Assembly: GCA_043800255.1 (NCBI GenBank)
Contig: JAZDNF010000009.1
Span: 128,001-192,000 of the forward strand
DNA from: Candidatus Altiarchaeota archaeon
GTDB taxonomy: Archaea > Altiarchaeota > Altiarchaeia > IMC4 > SCGC-AAA252-I15
Length of the DNA: 64,000 nucleotides
Reading direction: 5' to 3'
This document shows, piece after piece, positions 3,001 through 60,699 of the stretch (position 1 is its first letter; each line of letters opens with the position of its first letter). The position numbers and the translations under genes are program-made. The notes below the pieces were generated by a model that saw nothing but the letters and a program-made list of their open reading frames with translations, ran no database searches and was not told where the DNA came from.

Positions 3001-5292
3001 TTTAACCACAGGATTCAGGTTTTCAATCTATCTGGTACTTTTCTGTTTAGTTTTGGAAGTTATGGGGCTGGCGATACACAATTCAACTATCCCTATTCAA
3101 TTGTTGTGTCTGGCAATAGGATATATGTAACAGATACACACCACTGGAAAGTGAAGATTTTCGATCTTTCAGGTAACTTATTAACTAGTTTTCAGGGGGT
3201 AACCTCAGATGCTTACATAACCGCGCCTGAGGGTATAGCTGTGAGTGCGAATAAAATTTTTGTTAGCAGCTCTTACCAAGATAACTATGTACCAGGTCAT
3301 GATATTGACGTTTTTAACTTATCTGGTTCCTACTTATACAGTTTTGGTAATCATGGAAATCAAACTGGACAATTTGATAGGCCAGGAGCATTAGTGATTG
3401 ATAATAATAGCAGATTGTATGTTCTGGATTGCGATAATAATCGAATACAATTATTCAACTTAGATGGCACCCATATATTATCATTCGGACGTTATGGTTC
3501 AAATCCTGAACAATTTAACAGCTTGACTGGCATCGGTGTTGATGATGATGGGGGATTATATGTTACTGATAACAACTATAAAGTCCAGATATTTGACGTA
3601 TTTGCTTGGAGAGATACAACACCCCCATCGACACCTACTCTAAATGATCCTGGAAGCGCGGATGATGATGGCACATACACCCTAGGTTGGTCCGAGGCGA
3701 GCGATGATGTTAGGATTGCAATTTATGAAATTGGTGAGATAGCGAGTAGTACACCCACATTTCTAAGTGATAACTCAGAGGGTTCGAATAATTGGACGGT
3801 TGAAGGATATTGGAATCAAACTTTGTTGACATATCACTCTGGTCAAAAGAGTTATTGGGCATCTGCCAATGGAAATGGGTCATTGTGCTCTTCAACAAGC
3901 ATTCTAGGAGCATGCTATAATAGTAGCACTTCCTCGTATATGACTCAAGAAATTGATTTAAGTTCCTGCACTAATGCCACTCTAAAGTATTGGTACTATT
4001 ACCAGATTGAATATCAGGCAAATTGTGTCTGGGACAGAGCTTACGTCCAAATATCCACAAATAACCTTTCATACACCAATCTTGTTAATCCTTTCTGTGG
4101 CGAGGGGGGAGCACAATCTGACACATCAGGGAGTGCATATGGTTTGGCTGAAACATGGAATGAGGAAACAGGAATAAATATCAGTAATTACTGTGGAAAT
4201 GAAAATGTTTATATACGCTTTGGATTTACATCTGACTCTAGTGTAGAACATTCAGGTTTCTTCGTTGATGACATAGTTGTGGAAAGTGACGACTGGTTGT
4301 TTATTGGAAACACGACAGGGACAAACTACACATTCTATGGTAAACAACCCAATAGTTACTACTACAGAGTGAGGGCTCTAGACACAAGTGAAAATGAGGG
4401 GAACTGGAGTAATGTAGAGAACATAACAGTAACTCAAACAGGGACCACGACAACAGTAACTACAACAATACCTGACAATGACCCCCCAGACATAACTCTG
4501 ATCTCACCATCAGATAACTACAACGATAGAGATGGAAATGTGTTTTTTGTTTACACAGCCAGCGATAGATCCACATTAAATTGTTCCATTTTCACAGACA
4601 TCACTGGACCTTTCACATCAGTTTTGGATGACACAACTATTTTAAATAACAGTAGGAACAGCTTCTTCTTACAGAACATATCCGATGGCGAATACAGCTG
4701 GAGTATCTCATGTACAGATAATCACGGCAACTTGAATTTAAAGCAGCCATACAGAATCCTAAGAGTGTCAAAGATCTCGAATAAGACACACTACACGTCT
4801 CTAAATGTAACTACGAATACGACTGCAAGAGTGAATTCCTCAGAAACAAACACCATCATCGACTTAACCACCTCAGAAGATATTACTGATTCGTTTGTTT
4901 CTATCTCACTATCCTCAAATAATACTGCAAATGCATCCCTCACCCTAATTGGTCTTAATAAATATGTCACAATAGATGCAAGTCCAGAATTAGAGATGTG
5001 TCTATCCTCAGCACTAATCAAGGTTTATTATACTGATAGTGAAGTTCAAAATGCAGGCATAAATGAAACTGATTTAGCAATCTACTGGTTTAACGAAACC
5101 GAATCAGAATGGCAAAGACTAAATAGCAATACAATGGGGTGGGTGTATGGAACAGGCGTAGAAACAGATTTAAATTATGTGTGGGCCAATGTATCGCACT
5201 TCAGCGATTATACAATAGCGGAAGGTGTAGAGACACAATCTATACCACTACTATCAGGTTGGAACCTGATTTCTATTCCGCTGGTTGCTTAG
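1..5292 (+). CDS. Large extracellular/surface multidomain protein, probably 5'-partial: Ig-like repeats, LYDDG.HND motif, GATase-like domain, NHL-repeat beta-propeller, FN3-like and jelly-roll modules
   Basis: ORF open from the window edge. Repeated FGSYG..GQF..P.GI NHL repeats, many N-x-S/T sequons, C-terminal GWNLISIP motif. AT-richer than the core genes. Confidence 0.8.
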   Translation: MANTQSIDAYSVNATISTLDPYIWIYDNFETFSDITAGSTRYSDSDYDFYVSSLAPGNHWVVFEINISDSTGNHWTNTFTLQIIDNVAPAISNVMIEPRRPTYGGPINVSTTVYDGSELSSVTYHFRSFIFGSATKNLYDDGLHNDGLANDSVFGNYETFYFGNPDLNFTLKINAIDIFNNSVISSIDFTTKPFNITSNVLIVDDDDGQSYEGYYTDALDAIGYSYDVWNVDFRGSLKSEVIDNYTDGIVIWFTGNDWVTTLTTDDQNNLKRYLNRGGKLFISGQDIGYDIGTTTFFSKYLHGKYESDDSNSYKINGISGDSITNGMSIGISGGDGANNQYYPSIVSGINGAETIVYYDISPTVLPLVINKTSRAKFARENISIISFEEYRDIFDIIAVKLEGNNIEEEPVGIAQPPSPPFCTVEVESYPLAIGYGKTGTIYWNISCSTSHTNTHYCKPSYGSTCDPPYTYQYATFNTQTGPSGKYSDTLTFDEQGTWSFFIHVINDSFNYYSDAYTIEVTGCVPSVISYPSSTNSGETKTITWNNGCNSTHTNVHYCTPGFDCDSNTNTYEAVTTMQSGSSGVYSANLTLNEVGTWEFFVHTTSNSTDYFSREYSFNVTGEINTSAGIRADEGSYKVVYLAFGFEAINNSNDRTNLLNKSISWLLNTTREIAYDDGSYGSSLWADSSTELSVKMDPFKYPFNLTAISYYFSVSSQPGTLELHIRDDNGANGGPSSDLLDPIIINATSGWNTINLSENSILITAGSFYVGYRPNVSYGVGIMADTSPPIHNRSFAGTSMYPGYNIAIRANGVIMADISPPNITINYPLDNNTYVTSSVTINYTVEDSSNISNCSIYTNRTGNWLIGNTSSTINATGENIFVLVNLTNGTYTWSIKCIDDVENVGYALQNYTFTISPYSTAQISSFGSYGYTDDKFEYPGDIDIDGLGNIYVAGGGKNKIQIFYSNGSLKQAFGSYGNESGQFSNPRGISVTDDRIYIADTFNHRIQVFNLSGTFLFSFGSYGAGDTQFNYPYSIVVSGNRIYVTDTHHWKVKIFDLSGNLLTSFQGVTSDAYITAPEGIAVSANKIFVSSSYQDNYVPGHDIDVFNLSGSYLYSFGNHGNQTGQFDRPGALVIDNNSRLYVLDCDNNRIQLFNLDGTHILSFGRYGSNPEQFNSLTGIGVDDDGGLYVTDNNYKVQIFDVFAWRDTTPPSTPTLNDPGSADDDGTYTLGWSEASDDVRIAIYEIGEIASSTPTFLSDNSEGSNNWTVEGYWNQTLLTYHSGQKSYWASANGNGSLCSSTSILGACYNSSTSSYMTQEIDLSSCTNATLKYWYYYQIEYQANCVWDRAYVQISTNNLSYTNLVNPFCGEGGAQSDTSGSAYGLAETWNEETGINISNYCGNENVYIRFGFTSDSSVEHSGFFVDDIVVESDDWLFIGNTTGTNYTFYGKQPNSYYYRVRALDTSENEGNWSNVENITVTQTGTTTTVTTTIPDNDPPDITLISPSDNYNDRDGNVFFVYTASDRSTLNCSIFTDITGPFTSVLDDTTILNNSRNSFFLQNISDGEYSWSISCTDNHGNLNLKQPYRILRVSKISNKTHYTSLNVTTNTTARVNSSETNTIIDLTTSEDITDSFVSISLSSNNTANASLTLIGLNKYVTIDASPELEMCLSSALIKVYYTDSEVQNAGINETDLAIYWFNETESEWQRLNSNTMGWVYGTGVETDLNYVWANVSHFSDYTIAEGVETQSIPLLSGWNLISIPLVA

Positions 5293-5705
5293 GGGGGTCT
5301 GAGAGTTGTTGATGTTATAGTTTGGGCGAATAGCTTCGCCAGAGACATACGCGGTTTGATCGCTTCTCCTGATAGTTTCAACATGATTTTAACGTACCCC
5401 CTGGTGATGCCTATCCTCTTATTTTGCAGCCCCTGTGGCGTCAATGTCCACCATAGGTGTGCTTCGCCCCGGTCCGTTATTTTGTAGACAAAGCCCTTAC
5501 CCACTCTCTCACGGGCTAGCAGGCCTTGCTCATAGTACCTCTTCAAGGCTGTTGAAGCGGCAGTCAGGCTCATATTCAACCCATTGGCCACATCATGGGA
5601 GAACATATACTTCCTATCTTTGACCAGCCTCAGGATTTCTTCCTTACGGTACGAATATATCATCTTCATAATTGCTGGTTCACACTTATACGGTGAACCA
5701 ACCAT
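5289..5705 (-). CDS. Winged helix-turn-helix DNA-binding protein
   Basis: SHDVANGLNMSLTAASTALKRYYEQGLLARER..GFVYKITDRG is a typical wHTH pattern. The true start may be a later Met. Confidence 0.7.
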   Translation of the reverse strand: MVGSPYKCEPAIMKMIYSYRKEEILRLVKDRKYMFSHDVANGLNMSLTAASTALKRYYEQGLLARERVGKGFVYKITDRGEAHLWWTLTPQGLQNKRIGITRGYVKIMLKLSGEAIKPRMSLAKLFAQTITSTTLRPP

Positions 5706-5748
5706 AATCTATCCTAAACATTTTCATATAAAAGCATGTTGCAGTTTG

Positions 5749-5957
5749 CGGCGGATTTTTCGTGTTAGAACAGTAATCCAGTGCCCTAATCTTTTTTCTT
5801 TAGTCCGCTCCCGGGGGCTTCCATTGGTAAGTTCAAGTCCTGTCCGTTAACATGTGTCAAACACGTGTTTGACAGACAGGCAACAAAGCCCTCTTAATCG
5901 CTATTATATCCCTTTTGATTTATCAAAAGTTCGAGGCGAAGCCGAGAAAATCCGCCG
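5749..5957. repeat. Nested inverted-repeat element with a perfect 20-bp palindromic core
   Basis: CGGCGGATTTT (5749-5759) pairs with AAAATCCGCCG (5947-5957). CCTGTC (5839-5844) pairs with GACAGG (5875-5880). The core TGTCAAACACGTGTTTGACA (5855-5874) is self-complementary. Confidence 0.75.
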
Positions 5958-6063
5958 TAGCCCGTTGCTCGGAATGGTTAGGTTAAGGACAGTACAAAGA
6001 GCGCGAAGACATAATTTCGCATGAGGTAGAACAAATCAATAAACACCCTACTGTTTCGGCATT

Positions 6064-6993
6064 TCATTGTTTTGCCGTAAGATTCAGACAGATGTCTTTC
6101 ATATTATATGCTGCGCTTTTTATTTCATTGCATAGGCTTGCGTTTCTGTTTTCGATTGCGTACCATTGGATACATAAATCCTGCTGAGTCTCGATTTTTT
6201 CCATAACGCATGAGAAATCACATGAAATTTTTCGACATTCTGTCCAGTCCTTGGTCGCTTTAGCCTTGCAGAATCCCCTGGATTTCGGCATGCCGGTAAG
6301 GTCGCATGCTGAGGTATCTCCCGTAGCAATCGCATAGTTTCTTATGCACTCTTCATATCCTATGGCAGTTAGATTAAACGCTTTGAGTGACATGCTACAT
6401 GCGTCAACGTTTCCTAGTTCAGCCCCAACCTTTGCCGCACATTCACCAAGTTTACCCTCACGCGACCATCCGTCCGCATCAACAATGGGTTCAGACATTA
6501 AGTAGCTACAATTATCAATAATTGCCTTCTCAAGCTCCGCGTGCTGTGCTTCTAAGTTGAATATAGAGAGATTAGTTCGTGCAATTATGGCCCCGCTGTC
6601 GTCTTTAATTGTCAGAAGCTCGATTATGTATTTGCCTGGCATGAGATTATGGTAATACTTGTTTTGTTCTACCCAACCAGGTGCCTTTGCAACGAATGTT
6701 TCATACACTGGCATTATCTCATTTCCGCCTTCATCAATGACTCTAAACCCATACGTTGTTCCTTTAGGAAGTCCTCTTTGCTGGAGAAAAAACCATTCGT
6801 TTGTTCCAAGGGATGTTACTACGTTTTTATCATTGTCTAGAACAACCACTTCGGCATCAGGAGAAATATTTTCAGAAATGCTCAAATTTAATCCGGGAGG
6901 GGTGGTGTGGGGAATAAGACCATTGAGAAAAAATATTAATAAAAGTATGAGAACAGCGAAAACGATGAATAAAAACAAATATTTTAGTCGCAT
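6064..6993 (-). CDS. Membrane-anchored Cys-rich extracellular protein
   Basis: N-terminal hydrophobic anchor. C-terminal repeats of the form C..(A/I)....D...C..I. Confidence 0.7.
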   Translation of the reverse strand: MRLKYLFLFIVFAVLILLLIFFLNGLIPHTTPPGLNLSISENISPDAEVVVLDNDKNVVTSLGTNEWFFLQQRGLPKGTTYGFRVIDEGGNEIMPVYETFVAKAPGWVEQNKYYHNLMPGKYIIELLTIKDDSGAIIARTNLSIFNLEAQHAELEKAIIDNCSYLMSEPIVDADGWSREGKLGECAAKVGAELGNVDACSMSLKAFNLTAIGYEECIRNYAIATGDTSACDLTGMPKSRGFCKAKATKDWTECRKISCDFSCVMEKIETQQDLCIQWYAIENRNASLCNEIKSAAYNMKDICLNLTAKQ

Positions 6994-7074
6994 ATATCAA
7001 GAATATACGTAACAATTTAAGAATATTGCTATTGTGGGTGGCCTCCGGGGGGGCTTTATACTTCTTATTAAACA

Positions 7075-8127
7075 ATGCTTACTATGAAAAATCGTGCTCT
7101 TTTCATGATTTTTATCTTGATTCTTATCGGAGTATCTTTTTACTACTATGAATTTGTTTATATTCCCAGTTCCGTAAAACTTTCTCCCCCCAGGGATTTG
7201 CCCTTTTTCAGTGTTTCATATGTCTACCAGATTCAACCTACTTCACCCATCACCTTTGCCTTTGGATCAGAGGCGGTATCGTCCATGGAATTAAGTCAGA
7301 AAATCGAGGGTGATTTGCACAATATAAAACAGATGGGGTTTGAGGGGGTTAAGTTATCGTTCCATTTTAGGGAGAACAATTATCTTCCAGAGAGGATTGC
7401 CCTGAAGGCTGCTAAAGAAGACTTGTATCCGATAGGTATTCTCATGGGCCATGACACCAAGCCCAGAGATAGGGCGTTTACTGAGGATGAACTGAGGGAA
7501 TGGGAATCCTTTGTAAGAACGGAGGTGAGGGCGAACAAGGGCATAATCTATTTTTGGGAGGTCTGGAATGAGCCAGACATTGATTTGTTCAGATATGGAA
7601 CGCCTGAAGAATTTCTAACGCTCCTTGAGAGGACGTACAAAATAATCAAAGAAGAGAACCCTCAAGCTAGGGTCATAGTAACCCTTGATGCTTTTGACAG
7701 GCGGCCGCGTGAATTTTCCGAGGGTTTATTGTCGTTGGGTGGTGGGGATTATTTTGATATTCTTAGCTTTCATCCCTATGGAGCGAATCCATACATACGG
7801 GAGGATGTTTTTAATGAGTCGATAGTCGAGGAGAAAGAGATGCTGGCAAGGTATAACAATCGGTGGCCGCTTTGGATAACTGAGATAGGCCAGCCAACAA
7901 GCGAAGTCTCTGAGGGAACACAGGCAGATTTGGCGGAATTAGTTTTCAAAACCGCTCACAAAGAGAGAATACCAATAATCTGGCTTCACTATTCTGATCA
8001 GAGACTATATCAGATTGGAGAAAGTTCTGGTTGGGGGTTGTTAGACATAAACGGTAATCCTAAACCAGTTTTTGAAAGAATAAAAGGAATTTTACAAGAG
8101 GCAGGTAAAGGAACAGTGAATTCTTGA
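7075..8127 (+). CDS. Membrane-anchored clan GH-A glycoside hydrolase (GH5/GH39-like)
   Basis: WEVWNEP acid/base motif, SFHPY, and LWITEIG nucleophile motif. N-terminal TM helix. Confidence 0.8.
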   Translation: MLTMKNRALFMIFILILIGVSFYYYEFVYIPSSVKLSPPRDLPFFSVSYVYQIQPTSPITFAFGSEAVSSMELSQKIEGDLHNIKQMGFEGVKLSFHFRENNYLPERIALKAAKEDLYPIGILMGHDTKPRDRAFTEDELREWESFVRTEVRANKGIIYFWEVWNEPDIDLFRYGTPEEFLTLLERTYKIIKEENPQARVIVTLDAFDRRPREFSEGLLSLGGGDYFDILSFHPYGANPYIREDVFNESIVEEKEMLARYNNRWPLWITEIGQPTSEVSEGTQADLAELVFKTAHKERIPIIWLHYSDQRLYQIGESSGWGLLDINGNPKPVFERIKGILQEAGKGTVNS

Positions 8128-8403
8128 ATCTTGTCAGGAACTTATTTTTTTGGACGTTATCTGCTTTTTCCCCCGAATATAATTGTGAATTTTTCTTTTT
8201 CTTGCCCTTTTCCTTTCTTCGGCTTCAAAATATAAAAACCGCATACTCTTCCGCAACCCAACAATCTAACATTCCCCAACAGCTCCATTATCCCACTGGC
8301 TGCGGCTCAGACGGCGAAATCCACTATCACACAGGAAACCAAACCCGCACGGACAACCAAAAAATCAGCGAAAACAAAATAGAAAAACCATGGTTTATTG
8401 TAT

Positions 8404-8462
8404 GTTATTTAAAATGGGATTCAATGTTCTATTATGGACTCTGCTCACATTCAAATCGCTGA
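8404..8462 (+). repeat. 59-bp perfect direct repeat, left copy
   Basis: Identical to 9602-9660 (GTTATTTAAAATGGG...AAATCGCTGA). Confidence 0.95.
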
Positions 8463-8559
8463 GGTGGAGGGTATCTCAGACCTACTGCAAAAGCTTTTCT
8501 GGAAGCAGCCTGCGATGGCTGGGAAGGCTGTGGAGTTTTTGGAGTATGTGAGGCAGTGG
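8434..8559 (+). pseudogene. Truncated, diverged 5' copy (42 codons) of the wHTH gene at 9632
   Basis: MDSAHIQIAEVEGISDLLQKLFWKQPAMAGKAVEFLEYVRQW versus MDSAHIQIAEVEGVADLLQRLFWKQPQMAGKAVEFLDYIRQW. Similarity stops after RQW. Confidence 0.85.
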
Positions 8560-8645
8560 TGCCATATTATGAAACGGATGGTAGGCGGTTTGGGATTCGC
8601 TTATATTTATACTAGTTCATATCTGTTATACGTAGGTTGTCGGTC

Positions 8646-8924
8646 ATGCAAACTCACATTGACTCTCCACAGCAGCTTCGGGATTTCATAGATCACCGGA
8701 TGGATGAGGCTGTTAGGGATGCTCGAAGGACTGCTGAGAGGGTTGCTAGGACTGAGGCGAAGCTTGCTGAATTCGAACTTCTGTATTCTGCTGTTGTCGA
8801 TGGAGGGGAGAGTAGGAAGAATCTCGAACTGCTGAGAAGGGACAGGGAAACCCGGTGGAAGAAGGCTTTGAAAAAGGCTGGCGGCAATGAGGATGAGGCC
8901 TTGCTCATCTACGACGAGTTTTAG
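8646..8924 (+). CDS. Small helical hypothetical protein (possible antitoxin)
   Basis: ATG at 8646 preceded by AGGT. Charged helical sequence. Convergent with the PIN gene and overlapping it by 20 bp. Confidence 0.55.
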   Translation: MQTHIDSPQQLRDFIDHRMDEAVRDARRTAERVARTEAKLAEFELLYSAVVDGGESRKNLELLRRDRETRWKKALKKAGGNEDEALLIYDEF

Positions 8925-9456
8925 ACCTTCTGCCGTATGTTTGCCTGAAGAAGTCTTTGATTTTTTTGTCCATAGTGGGGAATTCGCCGACTCCCATGCC
9001 CATGAGTTTGCAGGCTTGTTTGAAGTGGTTGTTGGTTGAGTAGACGAGGTTGATGCGTTCCTTTTTGAAGTCGGCGATGATGTAACAGTCTGGGGGGTGC
9101 ATTTCTATGTTGTTTTTCTTGCACAGGTTGAAGAGTTCTCTGACCGTTTCTCTGTTAGTGGAATCCCTTTCTATGACCTGGATTTTGTTGTTTTTTAGGA
9201 ATTCGGTCAGCTCTTGGGTAGCTTCCTTTAGGCTGCGTCCTTTCTTTTGTAGGATGTGGGTGGCTTCTTTGTCGGGTTCTAGGGATATGCGATGTACGAA
9301 AGCGGTGTCTCCGAGTATTTGGTCACCTTCGTTGGAGAAGAATCGTGGATTCTCTATGAGGTCGACTAGGATGTTAGTGTCCAATCCTATTCTGCGTTCT
9401 CCTTGGAATCTGGCTGTTCTCTTCAGCCGGTAGATTTGTTCCCTCTTTTCGCCCAT
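8905..9456 (-). CDS. PIN-domain (VapC-like) ribonuclease
   Basis: IGLDTNILVD N-terminal motif, HPPDCYIIA, and VYSTNNHF. Likely start is MGEKRE at 9456; the ORF is open to 9573. Confidence 0.75.
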   Translation of the reverse strand: MGEKREQIYRLKRTARFQGERRIGLDTNILVDLIENPRFFSNEGDQILGDTAFVHRISLEPDKEATHILQKKGRSLKEATQELTEFLKNNKIQVIERDSTNRETVRELFNLCKKNNIEMHPPDCYIIADFKKERINLVYSTNNHFKQACKLMGMGVGEFPTMDKKIKDFFRQTYGRRSKTRRR

Positions 9457-9601
9457 TGCAGAAGATATTGAGAGGGGAGAGGTATAAGAGCGGTATCTGG
9501 TTAGGTAGTAGCTTCCATAGCCCACCCCATTAACCAACCACCATGCTCTCAGCTTCCCCACCATTTCTGTCAATTGGGGCAGGACGCCGAAGAAATTTCA
9601 C

Positions 9602-14134: not shown

Positions 14135-15640
14135 ATGAAATACAAGGTAAGATTGTATGAGATCGAGACTGGGAAGCCTATCGTAGTCCTCAACGATGAG
14201 GACGTCGCGGAGATGGGCATCCACGTCGGCGACAGAGTCAAGATCATAAAAGGCAGCAAGGCAGTCACAGGCATCGTAGACACCACCACATCCTTCGTCA
14301 ACCCCGATGAGATAGGGATCTTCGAGGAAGTCAAAGAGTGCCTGGACGTGAAAGACGGAGACACCGTCGAAGTAAAGTCCACGGTGAGGCCGAAGTCGGT
14401 AGAGTTCCTGAAGAAGAAACTAAAAGGCGAGGAACTCCACGGCCACGAGATTAGGACCATAATACAGGATATCGTGGACAACAACTTGAGCGACATCGAA
14501 TTGAGCGCCTTCGTAACCGCATCATACATCAACGGCTACACGATGGACGAGATAGTAGCCCTTACAAACTCTATGGTCGAGACAGGAGACACCTTCGACT
14601 TCGGCGACGACACGGTGGACAAGCACTGCATCGGCGGCGTCGCAGGCAACAGAACGACTATGATACTCGTGCCAATTGTCGCGGCAGCAGGCCTCACCAT
14701 CCCGAAGACCAGCTCGAGGGCGATAACGTCGCCTGCTGGAACAGCCGACACCATGGAATTCCTCGCCAACGTCGAATTCGACATCGAAGAGCTCAAGAAG
14801 ATCGTGGCAAAGACCAACGGATGCATAGTCTGGGGTGGTGCAGTCAACCTCGCGCCAGCCGATGACAAGATAATAAGGGCAGAATATCCGCTCTCAATAG
14901 ACCCTGAAGGGCAGGTGCTGGCTTCGGTCATGGCCAAGAAGAAGTCAGTCGGCTCCGACTATGTGGTAATAGACATACCAGTCGGCAAGGGAACGAAGAT
15001 AGAGGACATGGACCAGGCTAACCTCCTCGCGAGGAAGTTCATCGAACTAGGCAACCGCCTTGAGATTTCAACAGAATGCATCGTCACCGACGGCAGCGCG
15101 CCCATAGGGAACGGCATCGGCCCAGCCCTGGAGGCACGCGATGTTTTGGACGTGCTCAACGGGAAGGGGCCGACAGACCTCGCTAACAAGTCAGTTGACC
15201 TAGCTGGCGTCCTCCTGGAGCTGTCTGGGAAGGTGAGGAAAGGCGAGGGCAGGAAAACCGCTGAAAGCATCCTCGAATCCGGCAAGGCGAAGAAGAAGAT
15301 GATGGAAATCATCGAAGCCCAGGGCGGCAACCCCAGGATAAAATCATCTGACATCCAGCTGGGGGACAAAACCTACGAAGTCCTCTCTGACATCAAGGGA
15401 AGGGTCAAGTTCATAGACAACAGCCTCATCTCAAAGGTCGCCAGGGCCGCTGGCGCGCCGAAGAACAAGGGCGCAGGCATCCTATTGCACGTAGGCGTCG
15501 GCGACAAGATCGAGAAGAACCAGAAGCTCTTCACCATATACTCTGAAGTCGAGGACAAGCTCGATTACGCGATAAAGACTAACGAGCAGCTGATACCAAT
15601 AAGAGTCGGCGGAGTCATACTGAAATCAGTCGTCAAGTGA
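14135..15640 (+). CDS. deoA: AMP phosphorylase (thymidine phosphorylase family)
   Basis: N-terminal double-psi barrel. DKHCIGGVAGNRTT and PKTSSRAITSPAGTADTME motifs. Confidence 0.95.
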   Translation: MKYKVRLYEIETGKPIVVLNDEDVAEMGIHVGDRVKIIKGSKAVTGIVDTTTSFVNPDEIGIFEEVKECLDVKDGDTVEVKSTVRPKSVEFLKKKLKGEELHGHEIRTIIQDIVDNNLSDIELSAFVTASYINGYTMDEIVALTNSMVETGDTFDFGDDTVDKHCIGGVAGNRTTMILVPIVAAAGLTIPKTSSRAITSPAGTADTMEFLANVEFDIEELKKIVAKTNGCIVWGGAVNLAPADDKIIRAEYPLSIDPEGQVLASVMAKKKSVGSDYVVIDIPVGKGTKIEDMDQANLLARKFIELGNRLEISTECIVTDGSAPIGNGIGPALEARDVLDVLNGKGPTDLANKSVDLAGVLLELSGKVRKGEGRKTAESILESGKAKKKMMEIIEAQGGNPRIKSSDIQLGDKTYEVLSDIKGRVKFIDNSLISKVARAAGAPKNKGAGILLHVGVGDKIEKNQKLFTIYSEVEDKLDYAIKTNEQLIPIRVGGVILKSVVK

Positions 15641-15823
15641 GTTCAGACGTTCTTTTTTTCTCTTACATTGCCTTGCGCTTTCTGCCATCTCCTTCGACTC
15701 TGGAATCTCAATCACGCCCTTATGCTTTGAGTAATCTTCTCCAGCGGCAGCGCCGCCCACCTTCACATTAGGAAGCTCAACACCCTCAAAAGTCCTGTGC
15801 CTCAGCCGGTTGATCATCATCAC
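15626..15823 (-). CDS. Small hypothetical protein
   Basis: Start overlaps the stop of the upstream ORF and follows GAGGAG. No recognisable motif. Confidence 0.35.
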   Translation of the reverse strand: MMMINRLRHRTFEGVELPNVKVGGAAAGEDYSKHKGVIEIPESKEMAESARQCKRKKERLNSLDD

Positions 15824-16362
15824 TCCTCGTCTGCCTTCCTAGCAGCCTTCTTGATGTCCTGTTTTTTATCATCGGTTAGCTCTTTGCCTTTGCGGAATTC
15901 GTTTACTGCGTCTAACACTCCGTCATCACCGGCCCACGCGTTCTCCTCTATCTTCTGAACGTACTGCTCGACTTCAGCCTTGTCGACGTATCCCGCCCCA
16001 TAACCTTTCATTATGTCAGGCGACACCCTCACAAGATGCTGTAATGAATCAGACCACTCCCGGGATTCCATGCTACCCTTAGCCAGGTTTATGCCCTCAT
16101 CGATTCTGTCAAGGGTAGGCTGCCATGCCTCAGACTGTACTCTCTCGCCTATCACCTTCCGGGCGAACTCAGCCTCCTCTATCTTCCTCTTCACCAGGTT
16201 AGCCCAGTCCTCGTCCCTCGTTGCCTTCCGTATCTCGTTTATGTCCTCCCTACTGAGGCCGTACATGTCCTCCCTAGTCATCTGATCAGGGTCCTTCTCC
16301 TTCGACATCTTCCCCAGCTGAGCCAGCTTCGCAATGCACGAAGGGCATAAATCGTGTGCCAA
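15820..16362 (-). CDS. Helical hypothetical protein, probably the frameshifted C-terminal part of 16364..18571
   Basis: TTG start 1 nt after the upstream stop. Begins with CPSC, complementing the CEEC at the end of the upstream ORF. Confidence 0.6.
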   Translation of the reverse strand: MAHDLCPSCIAKLAQLGKMSKEKDPDQMTREDMYGLSREDINEIRKATRDEDWANLVKRKIEEAEFARKVIGERVQSEAWQPTLDRIDEGINLAKGSMESREWSDSLQHLVRVSPDIMKGYGAGYVDKAEVEQYVQKIEENAWAGDDGVLDAVNEFRKGKELTDDKKQDIKKAARKADEE

Positions 16363-16363
16363 T

Positions 16364-18571
16364 TTATTTACCTCTCTTCTGTTTTATGAACGGCATACCG
16401 CATTCCTCGCATACCGCAACCTCCCAACCCTTCAGCTCCTCCTCAGGGTTCTCGGCCTCGGCAGCCTTCCTGATCATCTTATCAGCCACACTCCGCCCGT
16501 CAGCGCCCTCCTCCAGAATCTGAGGCGCCTTCTCCGCCTTGCCGACTAAGTCACCCACCACAGCGCCCTTATCCTTGAATCTGTCCGAGAGGCCGGCCTC
16601 CTCAACCCTGCCGAACACCTCCTTCACCCTCTCAGCCTCATCAGGCTTCAACCTCTCAAGCCTCCGCTCATCCACATGAGCCTTCCAAGCCCCAAGCTCG
16701 GCAGGAGCACCACGCCTCGGCCTCTCAACAGCAGACGGAGCCTCGATGGCAGCCTCAGGCCCGGCATGCGGGACTTCAGCACCCAAACCCTCGCCAGCTC
16801 TCCTGGGTTTGCCTTTGACTGCGTAGTCGCTCTCTGTTATTCTGGCTCCGGATGTTGCTGGAGGCATCTCGCCTTCTGGGATTGCTTCGCCGGCAGCCTC
16901 TGACAGCTCTTCTTTCCTCTCATGCTCAGCCTCGGTGAACTTCTCACGCTCCCTATCCCTCCACAGGCTGCTGAGATCCTTCTGCCTGCCAGCCTCCTCG
17001 CCAGCCGTCTCACCCTCCATCTGAGTCTCAGGAGGAACAACCGGCTTGGAAGGAACACCAGTCTCAGAGACGACACCGCCCTCGCCGGCAGCCGGGCGCG
17101 AAACCCTCGCGCCCCTGACAGCCTCAGTGGCTTTTCTGACATCATCCAGAGGAGCATGCCTGCCAGGCTCCTTCGCAGAAGCAGAGGGAATTATCTTAGA
17201 CGGCTCCCTCGCCCTCTCAACCGAAGCGGGAGTGACATCATTCAAATCCCTGCCAGGCCTCTGCACGCTGGGTGAGCCGGCTCCGGGAGCAGTATGCCTG
17301 CGAGAACTCCAGAACGAACACCCAGGACGATTATACTCGTAGTCGCCGGTCGCCCTGAAAGCCATCCTACCGGCGCCAGGCGTCATACTATACCATCCTG
17401 ACCTCTCCCCCGCATAATAGCCGCCCTCGGTGTAGGCGACAACCTCCTCACCGGATAGGCCTCGGGAATAGTAGAGTGCGGAACCAAGCCTCTCACCGCC
17501 ACGCTCACTCCACCCCATAGTATGAGTCGTCTGATAACGGCCGCCTGCCGCAGCTATCGCCGAGGAGAAGCTGCTGCCCTGCATCATAAGCGCTATCGGC
17601 CTCGTGAAAGTCGCACCACCCCTCGACGAGTAAGCGAACACTGTGCCGCCAATCCACGGCAGAATCTTGGAAACGAGGAGCGGCGTCAACACTATGCCCA
17701 AAAAGCTCGCCAATGTGAGCACAGCATTGATTATGCCAGAGCCGCCGGAACTTAGGAAGGTGATGCCCATCGCGAGGAAGCCCATCTGGAAGACCTGAGT
17801 GAAAATCACAGCAATCGAGAAATTTATTATGGCATTGCCCATACCCTTAGTCAGCCTGAAAGACCACAGGAATATGCCAAGAGGGAACAGCGCAGCGCAC
17901 ACTACCACAACAAAATACCGTATAGCCGCAACCAGCACCGCCATCTGAACAAACCATAAACCAAACTGCCATATGCAGAACCCGATTATCAGCGCACCCG
18001 CCGGCACCTTGAATATGTCAAAGACGCTCGTAAGCTCAGTGTCAACAGACAACGCCATAGCATCCACAATCTCCCCAGAAATGTTAAGCAAAGTCTGGAA
18101 TATCAAAGGCGAAATCGAAGTCAACACCAAGCCTATGAAAACGTCCAACAGCATCGACTTCGCCTGAGCCCTCCCCCGAACAGAACCCTGCATGAAAATC
18201 AGATACAACCCCAACAGTATCAGCAGAGTCACGAAAAACGGGACGAAAAGCTTCAGCAACGTCCCGTTAATATTCTTCACGGTAGTGTCCTCCTGCAGCG
18301 GGAAATAGAAGAATGAGCTGCTCTCGAAGTACTCGCAGTAGCCGCCAGTCTCCCCCACCACGCACGGGTTAACCCGTATTATAAAAACCAGAAAATAGAA
18401 CGCCTTCTCCAGGAAGAGGTTAGCGCCAGTCGTGAGGAAATCAGCACTCTCCGCAGGAGTCGTCTCCTTATAAGGCGGGACAGCAGCAAACACCAAAGGA
18501 GAGAACAAGAGAGTTAACACTATGAGCAAGGCAAACCAACTCATCCCGGATTTCAGAATACGTTTCATCAT
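16364..18571 (-). CDS. VirB6/TrbL(CedA)-like polytopic membrane protein with long low-complexity tail
   Basis: Signal peptide and about 7 TM helices. RYFVVVVCAALFPLGIFLWSFRLTKGMG motif. Paralogous to the N-terminus of 18584..22855. Confidence 0.6.
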   Translation of the reverse strand: MMKRILKSGMSWFALLIVLTLLFSPLVFAAVPPYKETTPAESADFLTTGANLFLEKAFYFLVFIIRVNPCVVGETGGYCEYFESSSFFYFPLQEDTTVKNINGTLLKLFVPFFVTLLILLGLYLIFMQGSVRGRAQAKSMLLDVFIGLVLTSISPLIFQTLLNISGEIVDAMALSVDTELTSVFDIFKVPAGALIIGFCIWQFGLWFVQMAVLVAAIRYFVVVVCAALFPLGIFLWSFRLTKGMGNAIINFSIAVIFTQVFQMGFLAMGITFLSSGGSGIINAVLTLASFLGIVLTPLLVSKILPWIGGTVFAYSSRGGATFTRPIALMMQGSSFSSAIAAAGGRYQTTHTMGWSERGGERLGSALYYSRGLSGEEVVAYTEGGYYAGERSGWYSMTPGAGRMAFRATGDYEYNRPGCSFWSSRRHTAPGAGSPSVQRPGRDLNDVTPASVERAREPSKIIPSASAKEPGRHAPLDDVRKATEAVRGARVSRPAAGEGGVVSETGVPSKPVVPPETQMEGETAGEEAGRQKDLSSLWRDREREKFTEAEHERKEELSEAAGEAIPEGEMPPATSGARITESDYAVKGKPRRAGEGLGAEVPHAGPEAAIEAPSAVERPRRGAPAELGAWKAHVDERRLERLKPDEAERVKEVFGRVEEAGLSDRFKDKGAVVGDLVGKAEKAPQILEEGADGRSVADKMIRKAAEAENPEEELKGWEVAVCEECGMPFIKQKRGK

Positions 18572-18583
18572 CTCATTGACCTC

Positions 18584-21500
18584 TCAAGCCCCCTCTATCG
18601 CCTCCCTCGATTTAGTCTTATGATTGTAAGCTTCCACCCTGTCTCCGTCGAATATTATGCCGCCCCCTCCCCCACCGTAGGCGTCTGCCATCCCAGCATC
18701 AACGTTGATTATTCTCCCACCATACTGCTGGTTGACTCGGTTATCTCTCCTGTCAGGGATGTGCGCGTGGACTATCCGCTCAACTCCAAGCTCTCCTAGA
18801 AGCTGACCTAATGCCCGCTCTTTCTTTGGAGTTCCAATTGCCCAGTAATCTTGCAAATTGAGATTAGGATCCCTGCGAGTTGCATCGAATGCTCCATTAA
18901 CATCACCGAAACGCTTTTTCCCTTCACCATTCAACTCTAATCCGCCTAGAGCATGATACCATTCCCAATTACGCTGCGTATCCCCAGCCCACATGGGAGA
19001 GTTCCCGCTATTCCACCTGTTAAAATCGAGGTTCCCTCCGCTCATGTCTTTTTGCATCTCCTGCATGCCCTCAAGGCCAGTCTTTCCTTTGTAGGGTATC
19101 CAGTCGCCATTCTGATCCAACGGCAATCCAGCGTGCACGAAGAGTGCGTTGTTCTCAAGATGGTATATGCTGCCTTTCGCCCCCATCTGCTCCGCCATCC
19201 TCTGAAGCCGCGGATTGTTCATAGCGCCCCGCTGGTCTGAAGCACCCACCTCATTCAGAACTTTGTCACCTCCGTTGTACATCCAGTTCTGGTACGCATT
19301 CGTATCCCCCTGCATCGCTGCCATGAAGAAGAGATCGTGATTTCCTAACAGTCCAACCGCCCTGCCCTGGTCGATAAGACCGCCATCTCCGAACACCTGC
19401 TCAGCTACAGCAACCCCCTGATCACCCCTGTCCATATAGTCCCCATGGAATACGAACCTGTCGCCGCTGTGAGCCTCCATGATCTCCTGAAACCTGCCCA
19501 ACTCCCCATGCTGGTCTCCGACCGCCATAAGCCTGTTGTATTTACCGCCAGTCGATTCACCGACGGGGATGATACTGCCGTCAGACTGTGGTCCCGCCAA
19601 AATCACAGGCTCGCCGGCGGCTGCTTCGGTTACGGGCTGGGCGTTTGGCGTCGACTCATGCGCATGAGCAGGAGCAACAGGTGGCTTCTCCGGCTCCGGA
19701 GGTCTCTCTGGCCTAGGGCCGCCTGAGGATGGTGGCCGGCCTCCTGACGGACCAGCACCTCCTCCAGAGCTGCCCGGCTTTTCGACCCTGCGCTTCCCGC
19801 GCCGTTCCTTAGCCAGCCTCCTCGCGCCCAACGCGGCCCCAATCCCCAAGCCTATGGCCGAACCTAAGAACGGAACAGGAAGAACGGTTCCAACAGCCAT
19901 TCCAGCACCAAGATAAGGAGCTAACGTCCTCAAACGCTTCCATTTCGGATACTTGTACTTGCCGCTCACTATGTCATCGTATATGCCGAACGCCTTTCTT
20001 TTCGACTTGGTGCCCTGGAGGTTCATCTCATCCAGGCGTTTCTTTGCCTTCCACTCCTCATTCTTGCCTACTGCACCAACAGCGTATTCGTTTGGAGACT
20101 TCACATGCAGCATCCCATTCCTCTTCGAGGCGAGCTCCCGGTGCCTGTAACCCAACGTCTTATCCCCGGTTGCCTTCTCAGCGAACTTCAACTTATCATC
20201 AAAGCCCATTGTTCTCTTCTCATCCCTGTTAAGACCTCTGACGCCGTCTTCAAACTGGGCGTCAGCTTTAATCCAGCGCTCATTGTCCACGACGCTGGAA
20301 AAACCGTTCTCCTTCGCGCGTGCGAGCATCTCCCCGTACTCGCCCTCATCTCTAAGACCTTCAAGATCGGATTTCCCCGGCCCCAACAGCTCGTCCAGAG
20401 ACTGCAACTTGTCGAATGCGTCGCCGGCATTAACAAGGCCTAAATCCTCGCCCAAGGGATTGTCAATCTCCTCATCCCTGAGATTTTGAATCTCGTCACT
20501 AACCCTGCTTATCTCCCCAGTATCCTCGATCATTCTGCCTAACCGCTCATCATGCTCATCCCCAAGTTTGAGCTTATCCTTAACAGACTCAACTCTCTCC
20601 TCGGGTTTCCCGGCGGAATCTTTTATCGCCTTCTCAATATCCCTCTTACTGTTGCCTGTCTGAGCCTCAAGATCCGCGATGTCAGACTGCCTCCTATCCT
20701 TCCTGTGCTCAACCTCGGCGTTCAGGACTTCCAGCTTCCGCATCTTCTCGTTTTTCCCCAACGCCTTCTGCTTACCCCTGAGACCGTCAACCTCATGATC
20801 GTATGCGCTGCCTCTCGTCTGAAGCACCTCCGCCACATCGCCAACTCCAGCGTCTATCTCAAGAAGAGAGTAAGCGCCTAAAACCTTCTTACCGTCTGCT
20901 GATGGGATGGCTCCAGGGCCCCCGCCAGGCTTCCCGCCTGCTGAACCCTCCCCACCGGATCCGCCCTTATCAGGCGCTCCACCAGGCTTGCCTCCCGGAG
21001 GCCCACCACCAGGCGTCCCCCCAGCACCAGGAGCAGGCCCTCTAGCAGCAGCCCTTGTCGTATCAGCCATCTGCTCCCGCCTACGTTTATCAACCCCTTT
21101 GACTATTTTGCTGACTCCGATGGTGGCCGCGATTCCGATGCCGACGCCGCCGAAAAGGGACATGGATGACAGGAGTGCCAAGCTGACGCCAGCATGCGAT
21201 GCGAGCATGCTAGTGGGAGCCTGCGCTATCTTCCTGCGCATGTAAGTGCCGAAGATGCTCACACTATTCGGACCCTTGTAACCTTTGTCAGACTTGCCCT
21301 TACCCCTCATCCTATCCCTGGCTCTCACATCCAGCTCAGCCTTCGCGAGCTTCCAATCCCTGTCTTTAGTAATCTGGGGGAACAATTTACCCCACTCAGT
21401 ATACTCTTTCGTTTCCTTATCCCGCTCAATGCCAGCGCCAAGCGCCCGCCCCATATGACGAGCGTAACCCTTAAGGAACGGCGGCAAAACGTACATCTTC

Positions 21501-22855
21501 TCCGCCCCGGCAGCTGTGAACACCTTCCCAATAGGCTGCACCGCAGTCAAAAGGCCATCCTTTGCAGCACCAGTCAGAGACTCCATAAGACCCCTCTTCT
21601 GCTGCGTGCTGGTCGAGCCCATCCGCCCCCCATACAAGAAATTGTCGACAGCCCCATCCCAACCACTCCGACTGAAAACGCCCTTACTGAGTTTACCGCC
21701 TCCAGCATCCTTGATACCATGATAGACTCCTCGCACGCCTCGGGCAGGCTTGCTGACGTCTCCTCCCGGGCGGGCGACTTCAGGCCTGCTGTCCTGATAC
21801 TCATCCCATCCCGCCTTTCGGAATCCTGTGAACGAGCCCGCAGCCTCCAAAGCCCACGGGCCGCTGCCCATCATAAGCTGACCTACCGCTATCATCTTCG
21901 GACTGCCCCAGTACCCTCCAGCTGCATTAACATAACTCCCCAGTGAGCTCATGAGGGTGGTCATCATCAGAGGCGAGATGATGATCATGGCAAAGCAGAC
22001 TATGGCAAGCAGAGCGCCTAACACGCCCTGAAAGTCAGCTAACAATGAGAGGAACATGACATAGAACAGCGTCTGGAGAACGGGGATTGAAATCCAAATG
22101 AGCGTCCACCTCATCAACTTAGCGCCCAACTTCTTCGTGTAATCCCACATGTAGAAGAAGATGGTTATGGGAAAGAAGGCGCCAAGTATGGCAACCACAA
22201 GATACCTCACATAGACCATGATAGCAGCAAGAAGTATCAGAAGTAGCACAATCCATCCGACCGTGCAAAGGAAATGAGGGAAGAACAGGAGAACCAGGAG
22301 GAGTATGACGCCGTTCATGGCCGCATTCCAGTCCCCTCCCGGAAACGCGGTCGTGAATATGGAATCAACCATCGCCTTCTCGATGTCAAGAATCATCTGA
22401 TATATCATCGGGGCGAAAGTCACGATAACGAGGCCGAAAAACAGCCGAGTGATGTACTGTTTAGCGTGCGCCCTCCGCCTATAGTCCATGGACACGAATA
22501 TCAGATACATCCCAGCCAGGATGATCACGCCCATGTAAGCTGGGATAACAATCAGCATCGCAAGCCTACTGATGTCCTTATAGGAACCGGTAAGCTGGCC
22601 AGTGCCCCAGTCGTAGATGTTAGGATTTAAGGACAAACCATCGAGAAGCAATCCAGTAAACCACCTCACGCCGTCCATCAAAAACCCTGAGAGCCAGTCG
22701 ATGATCTTACCTATCAGCCCCGGACCAGCACCAACGCCCTTGCCCATAGCGCCCGTCGAACCAACCTTCTCATCCCCAGAAGCAAAAAACGAGAACAATA
22801 GGAGTAAGGACGAGAAGAGTAGCGTCAACTTGATAATCTGATGCCTACTTTTCAT
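18584..22855 (-). CDS. VirB6/TrbL-like membrane domain fused via Gly/Pro-rich and coiled-coil regions to a C-terminal PPP-family metallophosphoesterase
   Basis: N-terminal TM bundle with RYLVVAILGAFFPITIFFYMWDYTKKLG. C-terminal GDQHG, GDYMDRG, GNHD, FVHAG, HAH and VDAGM motifs. Confidence 0.7.
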   Translation of the reverse strand: MKSRHQIIKLTLLFSSLLLLFSFFASGDEKVGSTGAMGKGVGAGPGLIGKIIDWLSGFLMDGVRWFTGLLLDGLSLNPNIYDWGTGQLTGSYKDISRLAMLIVIPAYMGVIILAGMYLIFVSMDYRRRAHAKQYITRLFFGLVIVTFAPMIYQMILDIEKAMVDSIFTTAFPGGDWNAAMNGVILLLVLLFFPHFLCTVGWIVLLLILLAAIMVYVRYLVVAILGAFFPITIFFYMWDYTKKLGAKLMRWTLIWISIPVLQTLFYVMFLSLLADFQGVLGALLAIVCFAMIIISPLMMTTLMSSLGSYVNAAGGYWGSPKMIAVGQLMMGSGPWALEAAGSFTGFRKAGWDEYQDSRPEVARPGGDVSKPARGVRGVYHGIKDAGGGKLSKGVFSRSGWDGAVDNFLYGGRMGSTSTQQKRGLMESLTGAAKDGLLTAVQPIGKVFTAAGAEKMYVLPPFLKGYARHMGRALGAGIERDKETKEYTEWGKLFPQITKDRDWKLAKAELDVRARDRMRGKGKSDKGYKGPNSVSIFGTYMRRKIAQAPTSMLASHAGVSLALLSSMSLFGGVGIGIAATIGVSKIVKGVDKRRREQMADTTRAAARGPAPGAGGTPGGGPPGGKPGGAPDKGGSGGEGSAGGKPGGGPGAIPSADGKKVLGAYSLLEIDAGVGDVAEVLQTRGSAYDHEVDGLRGKQKALGKNEKMRKLEVLNAEVEHRKDRRQSDIADLEAQTGNSKRDIEKAIKDSAGKPEERVESVKDKLKLGDEHDERLGRMIEDTGEISRVSDEIQNLRDEEIDNPLGEDLGLVNAGDAFDKLQSLDELLGPGKSDLEGLRDEGEYGEMLARAKENGFSSVVDNERWIKADAQFEDGVRGLNRDEKRTMGFDDKLKFAEKATGDKTLGYRHRELASKRNGMLHVKSPNEYAVGAVGKNEEWKAKKRLDEMNLQGTKSKRKAFGIYDDIVSGKYKYPKWKRLRTLAPYLGAGMAVGTVLPVPFLGSAIGLGIGAALGARRLAKERRGKRRVEKPGSSGGGAGPSGGRPPSSGGPRPERPPEPEKPPVAPAHAHESTPNAQPVTEAAAGEPVILAGPQSDGSIIPVGESTGGKYNRLMAVGDQHGELGRFQEIMEAHSGDRFVFHGDYMDRGDQGVAVAEQVFGDGGLIDQGRAVGLLGNHDLFFMAAMQGDTNAYQNWMYNGGDKVLNEVGASDQRGAMNNPRLQRMAEQMGAKGSIYHLENNALFVHAGLPLDQNGDWIPYKGKTGLEGMQEMQKDMSGGNLDFNRWNSGNSPMWAGDTQRNWEWYHALGGLELNGEGKKRFGDVNGAFDATRRDPNLNLQDYWAIGTPKKERALGQLLGELGVERIVHAHIPDRRDNRVNQQYGGRIINVDAGMADAYGGGGGGIIFDGDRVEAYNHKTKSREAIEGA

Positions 22856-23315
22856 AAGAACCCCATAATCTTCCGGAGCTCCTGTGAGAGGTTAAAGTCC
22901 TGTTGTCAAGATAGTCAACCGCAAGAAGCACCTCAAACCTCCCGCCAGCCTCACCCTCGCGTATAACCGTTGTGTTAATGTTCTGTATGCTCCCCGGCGG
23001 GACTTCAACAGGAAGCGACGGTTGGAGAACGACAGACTGTAATGTTCCACCGACTACAACCTGAACGTCGGTGATGTTAACAGACCCCCCGACTTCGTTA
23101 ACAAACGATATTGATAGGTTGCCCTCTTCAACCATTTTGAAATCTGCAGGCATTAGACCCCAGAAACCCAGAGAACCAGGAGCGATATCACCGCCGATGT
23201 TGAACAGGCCCAGCTGCCATGCCATCAGGATGGCAACAATAAGCAGGAGAAGAGCCCAACCATAGGTCATAAGAAACTCTAACGCGCCCTGACCTTTGGT
23301 GGACTGGATTCTCAT
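22845..23315 (-). CDS. Class III signal peptide (type IV pilin-like) protein
   Basis: KG|QGALEFLMTYGWALL prepilin-peptidase cleavage motif followed by a hydrophobic helix and a beta-rich domain. Confidence 0.85.
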   Translation of the reverse strand: MRIQSTKGQGALEFLMTYGWALLLLIVAILMAWQLGLFNIGGDIAPGSLGFWGLMPADFKMVEEGNLSISFVNEVGGSVNITDVQVVVGGTLQSVVLQPSLPVEVPPGSIQNINTTVIREGEAGGRFEVLLAVDYLDNRTLTSHRSSGRLWGSYEK

Positions 23316-55832: not shown

Positions 55833-55841
55833 ATTTTAAAC

Positions 55842-60414: not shown

Positions 60415-60422
60415 TCGATAAC

Positions 60423-60698
60423 ATGGCCCTCAGAGCCCGCATTATTGTCTCGGGAAGGGTGCAGGGAGTGTACTTCAGGGCGCACGCGAAAGACGAGGCC
60501 TTGAAGCTTAACCTGAGGGGATGGGTGAGGAACCTGCCGGACAGGATGGTCGAAGCAGTTATCGAGGGGGACGATAAGTCTGTGAAGAAGATGGTTGATT
60601 GGTGCAGGACTGGCCCGCCGAGCGCAAGAGTCGAAAGCATAGAGGTTGAGTGGGAGAAGCCGTCAGACGAGTTCTCTTCCTTCACGGTAAGGTACTAG
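60423..60698 (+). CDS. acyP: Acylphosphatase
   Basis: GRVQGVYFR, GWVRNLPD and GPPSARV motifs. Confidence 0.95.
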   Translation: MALRARIIVSGRVQGVYFRAHAKDEALKLNLRGWVRNLPDRMVEAVIEGDDKSVKKMVDWCRTGPPSARVESIEVEWEKPSDEFSSFTVRY

Positions 60699-60699
60699 T

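Follow-up and report, generated by a model that had tools for sequence, protein, structure and literature searches.

The 64,000-nucleotide (nt) stretch of Candidatus Altiarchaeota DNA analyzed here (the window) carries on its minus strand two adjacent genes, ORF1 and ORF2, whose products each present a pair of cysteine residues near the junction of the two frames. ORF1 (positions 16364–18571) encodes a 735-residue protein that includes a signal peptide, a VirB6-like module, a low-complexity stretch, and a conserved tail ending with CEECG, 10 further residues, and the stop codon. ORF2 (positions 15820–16362) encodes a soluble, all-helical protein of 180 residues without a signal peptide. The C-terminus of ORF1 reads VCEECGMPFIKQKRGK / KGWEVAVCEECGMPFIKQKRGK, then TAA, and its last residues are GMPFIKQKRGK. 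A putative first zinc knuckle, C721-E-E-C724-G725 (positions 16397–16411; codons of Cys721 at 16411–16409 and of Cys724 at 16402–16400), follows a strand-like WEVAV segment, and a putative second zinc knuckle, C6-P-S-C9 of ORF2 (positions 16336–16347; codons of Cys6 at 16347–16345 and of Cys9 at 16338–16336), is located at the N-terminus of a helix. We propose, with a confidence slightly above even, that the two proteins are translationally coupled and jointly form a single Cys4 zinc site in trans, which would tether ORF2 to the ORF1 tail.

The junction between the two genes is compact. The ORF1 stop codon TAA (positions 16364–16366), directly preceded by AAA (16369–16367), is separated by a one-base spacer A (16363) from the TTG start codon of ORF2 (16360–16362), which opens the sequence TTG GCA CAC GAT TTA TGC CCT TCG TGC (MAHDLCPSC). 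This TTG is the earliest start codon past an in-frame stop at 16388–16386. A Shine-Dalgarno (SD)-like GAGGT (16370–16374), embedded in the last codons of ORF1, lies 7 nt upstream of the TTG, and the distance from the end of its GAGG to the TTG is 8 nt. When TAAA is read as one step, a read-through protein of 916 residues with CEEC-x17-CPSC results, and deletion of one TAAA yields 915 residues with 16 residues between the cysteine pairs. The initial annotation had described CEEC, CPSC, AAA-TAA-A, and the position of GAGGT, all of which were confirmed on the minus strand, and its read-through product of 915–916 residues with CEEC-x16/17-CPSC was reproduced as well.

Among 61 genomes of the phylum, the ORF2-like domain was found in 4, namely, the present genome (G000), G001, G011, and G013. 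A first ORF2 profile (A1) had no match in the other 60 phylum genomes; the orthologs surfaced after a search with the ORF1 tail. The last 146 residues of ORF1 as the phylum query gave a weak match in G013 (E 0.003), located in a 2354-residue frame of the same family, and the loci of G011 and G001 were found once the small protein of G013 had joined the profile. Weak matches of the A4 profile in G043 (E 0.0275) and G033 (E 0.054) were dropped, as they are absent at E ≤ 0.01. In the window, ORF2 is followed by a convergent gene of the AMP/thymidine-phosphorylase family (positions 14135–15640, plus strand), and a gene of the AMP-phosphorylase family with 67–71% identity (tblastn) stands directly downstream in G001, G011, and G013. 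Because the same convergent gene follows each of them, the 4 loci are positional orthologs.

Comparison of the 4 loci revealed that (i) in G000 the junction has a gap of +1, the sequence AAA-TAA-A, and a frame relation of +1; (ii) in G013 the upstream protein carries PDEELVEAEIVTCKRCGRLFKKTG (IVTCKRCGRLF) followed by 80 low-complexity residues, and the small gene, which encodes 187 residues (MSDDLCPECVEELKQMALAK; N-terminus MSDDLCPEC) from an ATG start, overlaps the upstream gene by 11 nt in a CGA-TGA stop context, with GGAGGT 7 nt upstream; (iii) in G011 the tail of the upstream protein is VMDVCDGCGKVY and ends with VCDGCGKVYMKVVKK / KVVMDVCDGCGKVYMKVVKK, the junction is AAG-TGA with a GTG start overlapping the stop (GTGA), a frame relation of −1, and GGTGA 4 nt upstream, and the small protein is MSGICQECVEKLRKL (N-terminus MSGICQEC); and (iv) in G001, a member of the G011 genus, one fused frame of 2190 residues includes both the membrane module and the ORF2-like domain, and its final 778 residues are devoid of CxxC (aligned stretch PEMGDEEYSATLTKIRRMALAR).

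The locus is thus split in 3 of the 4 genomes, with three junction types, two frame relations, and a start codon of its own for each small gene. The initial annotation had raised the question of whether orthologs are fused or keep the same break; three loci are split at differing junctions and one is fused. It had also regarded the loss of the cysteine pairs from orthologs as an argument against the zinc motif. Both pairs are present in all 3 split loci, as a CxxCG in the tail of the upstream protein and a CxxC at residues 5–9 of the small protein, and in 0 of 1 fused loci. That is to say, the putative Cys ligands are absent where the two chains are joined, in one fused frame versus three split loci within one family of genomes. 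Because the genomes are kin, this distribution is a pattern rather than a statistic. Parsimony over the 4 loci suggests that the split state with cysteines is the older one and that G001 represents a secondary fusion, in which a clasp would be needless. The third reading of the initial annotation, two coupled proteins sharing a zinc ion, is favored here because both cysteine pairs occur together in the split loci but not in the fused ortholog; it is the best supported of the readings offered there.

The present genome, ~93% complete, comprises 1.75 Mb in 17 contigs, and its junction was compared with that of other assemblies. Four public runs from one study cover parts of the stretch (word shares 0.04–0.13) and were compared as contigs from relatives, not from the same strain; the contig depths are ~4, and 40 of the 133 differences from the relatives were listed. 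Two contigs span the junction, record 3 of run X2 (positions 16147–16647; 501 nt) with 0 gaps and 38 differences, and record 12 of run X4 (positions 16277–16451; 175 nt) with 0 gaps and 11 differences. Therefore, independently assembled contigs of a relative with ~92% identity contain the stop codon and the one-base spacer, and this relative retains AAA-TAA-A. Around the junction, the listed substitutions in this relative are synonymous in ORF1 at 16370 (GGT to GGG, Gly734), 16397 (GGT to GGC, Gly725), and 16400 (TGC to TGT, Cys724), and in ORF2 at 16351 (GAT to GAC, Asp4) and 16333 (ATT to ATA, Ile10). At 16362 (A to T on the plus strand; runs X2 and X4), the TTG is replaced by ATG, which leaves the protein unchanged if the codon is the start. 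The ORF1 tail (residues 664–735) shows mostly synonymous changes in the relative, and those in residues 664–700 are mostly silent or conservative, unlike those in the low-complexity residues 539–633, where many replacements occur. In addition, ORF2 contigs from several strains with 84–95% identity have 0 gaps. The break between ORF1 and ORF2 is real and conserved.

Two further differences are located in the low-complexity part of ORF1. The X4 contig has an insertion of one base at 16693 and a deletion of one base at 16698, a frame change that is compensated within five bases, and in the relatives ~80 bases at 16988–17073 are swapped for diverged sequence of similar length.

These comparisons bear on two other explanations. 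The first, an assembly error or an on/off switch based on slipped-strand changes in TAAA copy number, would draw on the two-copy direct repeat at the junction (TAAATAAA) and on the division of the assembly into 17 contigs. Assemblies from two other runs have the same junction length, although a rare variant may exist, since minor variants do not show in contigs; Tandem Repeats Finder reported no tandem array at the junction, so that TAAA-TAAA is a two-copy coincidence of AAA, TAA, and A; and the split orthologs from two other genera have no TAAA repeat. We give this explanation next to no credence, and the slipped-strand switch or recent mutation considered by the initial annotation is not supported. 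The second explanation is a gene fission heading to loss, in which a fused gene was broken inside a zinc ribbon, for example by TAAA duplication, and no working zinc site was left. The restoration of CxxC-x16-CxxC by deletion of one TAAA and the existence of a fused ortholog in G001 accord with such a history, but a zinc ribbon is missing from the fused ortholog, the split is common to three genera via different junctions, the listed junction substitutions are synonymous with a start codon that becomes ATG in the relative, and the ORF2 contigs of several strains are free of gaps. Fission toward loss is thus improbable.

To place the junction in its genomic context, we compiled a crude gene set of 1637 open reading frames covering 91.5% of the genome, which contains 1049 same-strand neighbor pairs. 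The commonest junction is a 4-nt overlap (186 of 1049 pairs), and the one-base gap (stop-N-start) is the second commonest (74 of 1049). The start codons of these 74 pairs are ATG in 70, TTG in 3, and GTG in 1, and TAA is the preferred stop codon (47/74); G is the preferred spacer base (41/74). The last sense codon is most often AAA (133 genes); AAA-TAA terminates 30 genes, and AAA-TAA-A terminates 7 of the 1637 crude genes versus ~11 expected. The SD-like GAGGT is enriched before start codons (3.7% versus 0.9% in the background), and the distance from GAGG to the start codon has a genome-wide peak at 7–10 nt, a range that includes the 8 nt at ORF2. Of the 74 one-base-gap pairs, 26 (35%) have an SD-like 4-mer upstream, as do 76 of the 186 pairs with a 4-nt overlap (41%), versus 13% in random DNA. 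A script search of the assembly found no motif of the 16S 3′ end. RNA folding around the site and downstream of it is unremarkable compared with shuffled sequences (z +0.11, +0.74, and −0.84). With its TAA-A-TTG and the GAGG before it, the ORF1–ORF2 boundary is an ordinary operon junction, and the site itself does not demand recoding.

Programmed +1 frameshifting at AAA-TAA-A, which would give a 916-residue fusion beside the 735-residue product, was the first reading of the initial annotation. Shifty-stop +1 frameshifting is known from bacterial prfB and from the AAA-TAA sites of Euplotes, and the end of ORF1 resembles these systems in the AAA lysine codon before TAA and the SD-like motif just upstream; moreover, the fused reading completes CxxC-x17-CxxC, and the relative keeps the site. 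Unlike in these systems, the downstream frame, ORF2, has its own start codon, with an SD at a distance usual for initiation, the motif is a common ending of ordinary genes in this genome (7 genes, with stop-N-start as a standard arrangement), no RNA structure stands out, and there is no conserved fusion. Neither the site nor the frame is conserved, given AAG-TGA with frame −1 in G011 and CGA-TGA with an 11-nt overlap in G013, and none of the homologs is a zinc-ribbon fusion, as those of ORF2 stand alone and the fused frame of G001 lacks the cysteine pairs. According to PMC8211752, −1 frameshifting (fucA1) is the only type demonstrated in archaeal cellular genes, and +1 frameshifting in archaea is merely suggested, for a haloarchaeal virus. 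The fucA1 gene of Saccharolobus solfataricus consists of two ORFs whose halves make up one functional domain through a programmed −1 frameshift (PMC8211752); it has a 40-base overlap, a slippery heptamer, and full-length homologs elsewhere, whereas ORF1 and ORF2 do not overlap, each initiates by itself, and the fused ortholog has no motif. Programmed recoding is therefore very improbable, and a tempting false positive is removed: in this genome, AAA-TAA-A downstream of an SD marks a routine operon junction, and stop-N-ATG is a frequent form of coupling.

We considered how often two cysteine pairs would meet at a gene junction by chance. A CxxC occurs in the last 20 residues of 32 of the 1637 crude genes and in the first 20 residues of 23, and ~0.29 adjacent same-strand pairs with both a terminal and an initial CxxC are expected among 1049; 1 was observed, which is ORF1/ORF2. 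The pairing of the motifs alone is suggestive, not overwhelming, and the weight of the case lies in the conservation of the cysteine pairs rather than in the motif alone. The two halves bear canonical knuckle signatures, CxxCG after a strand in ORF1 and CPxC before a helix in ORF2. Among the 486 CxxC motifs of the proteome, 129 are CxxCG and 68 are CPxC, and both signatures are found in 10 of 122 paired sites.

An alternative is that the two genes are coupled in the ordinary way while the cysteine pairs of their products act independently, as a homodimeric zinc hook, with another partner or metal, or without any function, and are adjacent by coincidence. The genome-wide expectation of 0.29 is not negligible, no zinc-ribbon family model matches the read-through protein, and the first pair of G013 is 84 residues away from the gene end, all of which would fit such independence. 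The retention of both pairs together in all 3 split syntenic loci from three genera, their joint absence from the fused frame, and the complementary rather than like signatures of the two halves argue against it. Independent cysteine pairs are therefore rather unlikely, although we reserve a sizeable minority share of our belief for them.

The ORF2 protein was further characterized through modeling and database searches. Its AlphaFold2 (AF2) model is all-helical with a predicted local distance difference test (pLDDT) value of 82, and a helix begins at residue 7. A Foldseek comparison with the Protein Data Bank (PDB) gave no fold match (best E 2.5); family searches against PDB sequences, PHROGs, and Pfam gave no match; the NCBIfam models aMBF1 (E 0.11) and CotS (E 0.02) were not significant; and the ESM Atlas returned no feature match and weak structural look-alikes only. 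Pfam holds no family for either ORF1 or ORF2. Three non-self relatives of ORF2 with 39–42% identity were found among 1.84 billion representatives, all of which are short stand-alone proteins: P0004 (181 residues), P0005 (303 residues), and P0006 (168 residues). The N-terminus of P0004 is MDLCASC. The public database entry for ORF2 itself (P0003) comprises 162 residues starting from Met19 and lacks the CPSC knuckle, since the gene caller missed the TTG start; automatic gene calls can thus hide such motifs. In a word-indexed database, ORF2 matched only itself, as the 162-residue call, and the read-through protein P0001 (region 640–916, lengths 503–1603) also matched itself only. No zinc-ribbon fusion homolog was found in the database searches or the phylum genomes, and no true match to the DNA of the P0004–P0006 homologs turned up in genome_contigs, metagenome_contigs, or viral_contigs. 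A match in an Acetobacteraceae metagenome-assembled genome (residues 147–221) was dropped as a low-complexity artifact.

A shared site would require the ORF1 tail and ORF2 to reside in the same reducing compartment. The AF2 model of ORF1 residues 1–400 (8-row alignment) consists of a signal-peptide helix and five long helices (residues 96–127, 131–186, 191–237, 244–274, and 279–316), and the loops at residues 128–140 and 238–243 are positively charged. The five helices and the positive loops therefore point to an N-out, C-in topology, in which the ORF1 tail would be cytoplasmic. According to this model, the tail is probably located in the same compartment as the leaderless ORF2, the cytoplasm.

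In the proposed shared zinc site, the ribosome that ends ORF1 would start ORF2 one base further on without any frameshift, presumably through termination–reinitiation coupling, so that the second half of the site would be delivered beside the first. The CxxCG of the ORF1 tail and the CPxC-helix of ORF2 could then complement each other as the two parts of a zinc ribbon or treble clef, one from each chain, with both knuckles binding one zinc ion between them. By sequence only, the arrangement corresponds to an interprotein Cys4 site, in which two chains supply two Cys ligands each. A complex prediction with ORF1 residues 620–735, ORF2, and zinc (score 0.26, mark 0.32) counts neither for nor against such a heterodimer. 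The more specific proposal that a zinc ribbon is assembled in trans, with one half from the tail of a VirB6-like membrane protein and the other from the N-terminal nine residues encoded by the following gene, in a small group of (probably) Altiarchaeota, is in our estimation evenly balanced.

The zinc-clasp motif of CD4 is CxC. The motifs of ORF1 and ORF2, which are CxxCG and CPxC-helix halves of a ribbon or treble clef, are unlike it. According to PMC12198760, the zinc clasp links the cytoplasmic tails of CD4 and CD8α to the N-terminus of Lck, which is a precedent for a membrane-protein tail and the N-terminus of a soluble partner sharing one zinc ion and is the described mechanism closest to the proposed ORF1–ORF2 site, where shared zinc would tether ORF2 to the ORF1 tail in the same manner. 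The clasp differs in being a vertebrate system with a kinase partner and unlinked genes, whereas ORF1 and ORF2 are adjacent and coupled and are known here from sequence alone. The Rad50 zinc hook is also an interprotein Cys4 zinc site, made of two CxxC motifs from two chains (PMC12198760), but there two like halves meet in a homodimer at the apex of a coiled coil, whereas ORF1 and ORF2 would supply unlike halves from two different proteins. A literature search on zinc ribbons formed by two polypeptides returned nothing relevant (the search was narrow and is no proof of absence from print), nor did one at the level of titles on split genes in Altiarchaeota. The split zinc motif with a cysteine-free fused ortholog is a modestly novel variant of a known site type.

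If the shared site exists, it would be a prokaryotic equivalent of the zinc clasp of T cells, extending to archaea the docking of a soluble protein on a membrane-protein tail through zinc. It would also be a rare natural zinc finger made from two gene products, for which the cysteine-free fused form would serve as an evolutionary control, and it could act as a zinc-dependent, possibly redox-dependent, switch by which a soluble factor docks to a membrane protein of the secretion type.

Several observations weigh against the proposed zinc site: (i) the CKRCG of G013 is located 84 residues from the C-terminus of the upstream protein, so the closeness of the first knuckle to the junction is not constant; (ii) the loci belong to three genera of one family, are not independent, and include a single fused case; (iii) each cysteine pair could act alone, for example in a homodimeric hook; (iv) P0005 and P0006 as called begin just past the CxxC position, although their starts may be mis-called and are considered unreliable because P0003, the entry of this window itself, starts at Met19; (v) four closer relatives of the ORF1 module, P0007–P0010 (490–730 residues, one of which is labeled Candidatus Altiarchaeota at the source), have neither a Cys tail nor an ORF2-like extension, and the G015 ortholog, which has no Cys tail, is succeeded by plain intergenic DNA rather than a coupled small gene; (vi) the mean pLDDT of the topology model is 65; and (vii) the differences listed from the relatives are 40 of 133 and come from contigs with depths of ~4. 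Because P0007–P0010 and the G015 ortholog have neither element, the Cys tail and the small gene form a lineage-restricted addition.

The membrane module of ORF1 comprises about residues 96–316, after the signal peptide. The top Foldseek matches of the module were structures of TrwI/VirB6 of R388 (7o3v_F/G/J, 8rtd_L, and 8rt9_F), with probabilities of 0.85–0.97, E values of 0.13–0.83, and template modeling (TM) scores of 0.29–0.46. Besides this best fold match and the five membrane helices, the likeness includes weak matches to T4SS_pilin (14–24 bits versus a cut-off of 26.6) and to conj_pls20_p028, a pLS20 conjugation membrane protein (16.8 versus a cut-off of 150). These scores are under the curated cut-offs, the tails are giant and variable, and no VirB4-type or other type IV secretion system (T4SS) ATPase was found in the window, nor was PF03135 (CagE_TrbE_VirB) found in the genome; the precomputed PF19590 label of P0002 was not reproduced by hmmscan. 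Thus, ORF1 is VirB6-like by resemblance and not an established family member. The extended VirB6 paralogs of Rickettsiales are a possible parallel. An 880-residue frame on contig C5 of this genome (positions 70296–71189), ~10 kilobases from two VirB6-like paralogs, matches AAA_10 (the VirB4/TraC-type ATPase family) just over the cut-off. Because AAA_10 also matches in 10 of 14 control genomes, this frame is a mere lead to a secretion- or conjugation-type cluster.

The N-terminal module of ORF1 has four paralogs in the same genome (five copies in all), which are located in the window at 16364–18571 (ORF1) and 18584–22855, on contig C5 at 53483–58756 and 59188–61044, and on contig C8 at 166417–168552. 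The paralog upstream of ORF1 in the same gene string (18584–22855, minus strand; 1423 residues) combines the membrane module with a C-terminal calcineurin-like/ApaH-like phosphoesterase domain. A 156-residue ORF (22845–23315), which overlaps the start of the 1423-residue gene by 11 nt, heads the minus-strand gene string; its match to a class III (archaeal pilin-type) signal peptide is very weak (E 0.38). Across the phylum, the module family was found in 22 of the 61 genomes in open frames of 205–2432 residues, with giant, highly variable, low-complexity tails and often in tandem (five matches on one G038 contig). Two members, L016 (G006:C88) and L024 (G030:C36), contain one in-frame TAA each and may be broken copies.

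The two ends of the window differ from the rest in composition. Positions 1–9600 have a low guanine–cytosine (GC) content of 0.38–0.46 versus ~0.52 elsewhere and carry a 1763-residue NHL-repeat/MAM-domain protein that extends beyond the start of the window, two family-less ORFs, and a PIN-domain gene. At the right end, a gene of the phage-integrase family (63021–63890) coincides with a decrease in GC content down to 0.43.

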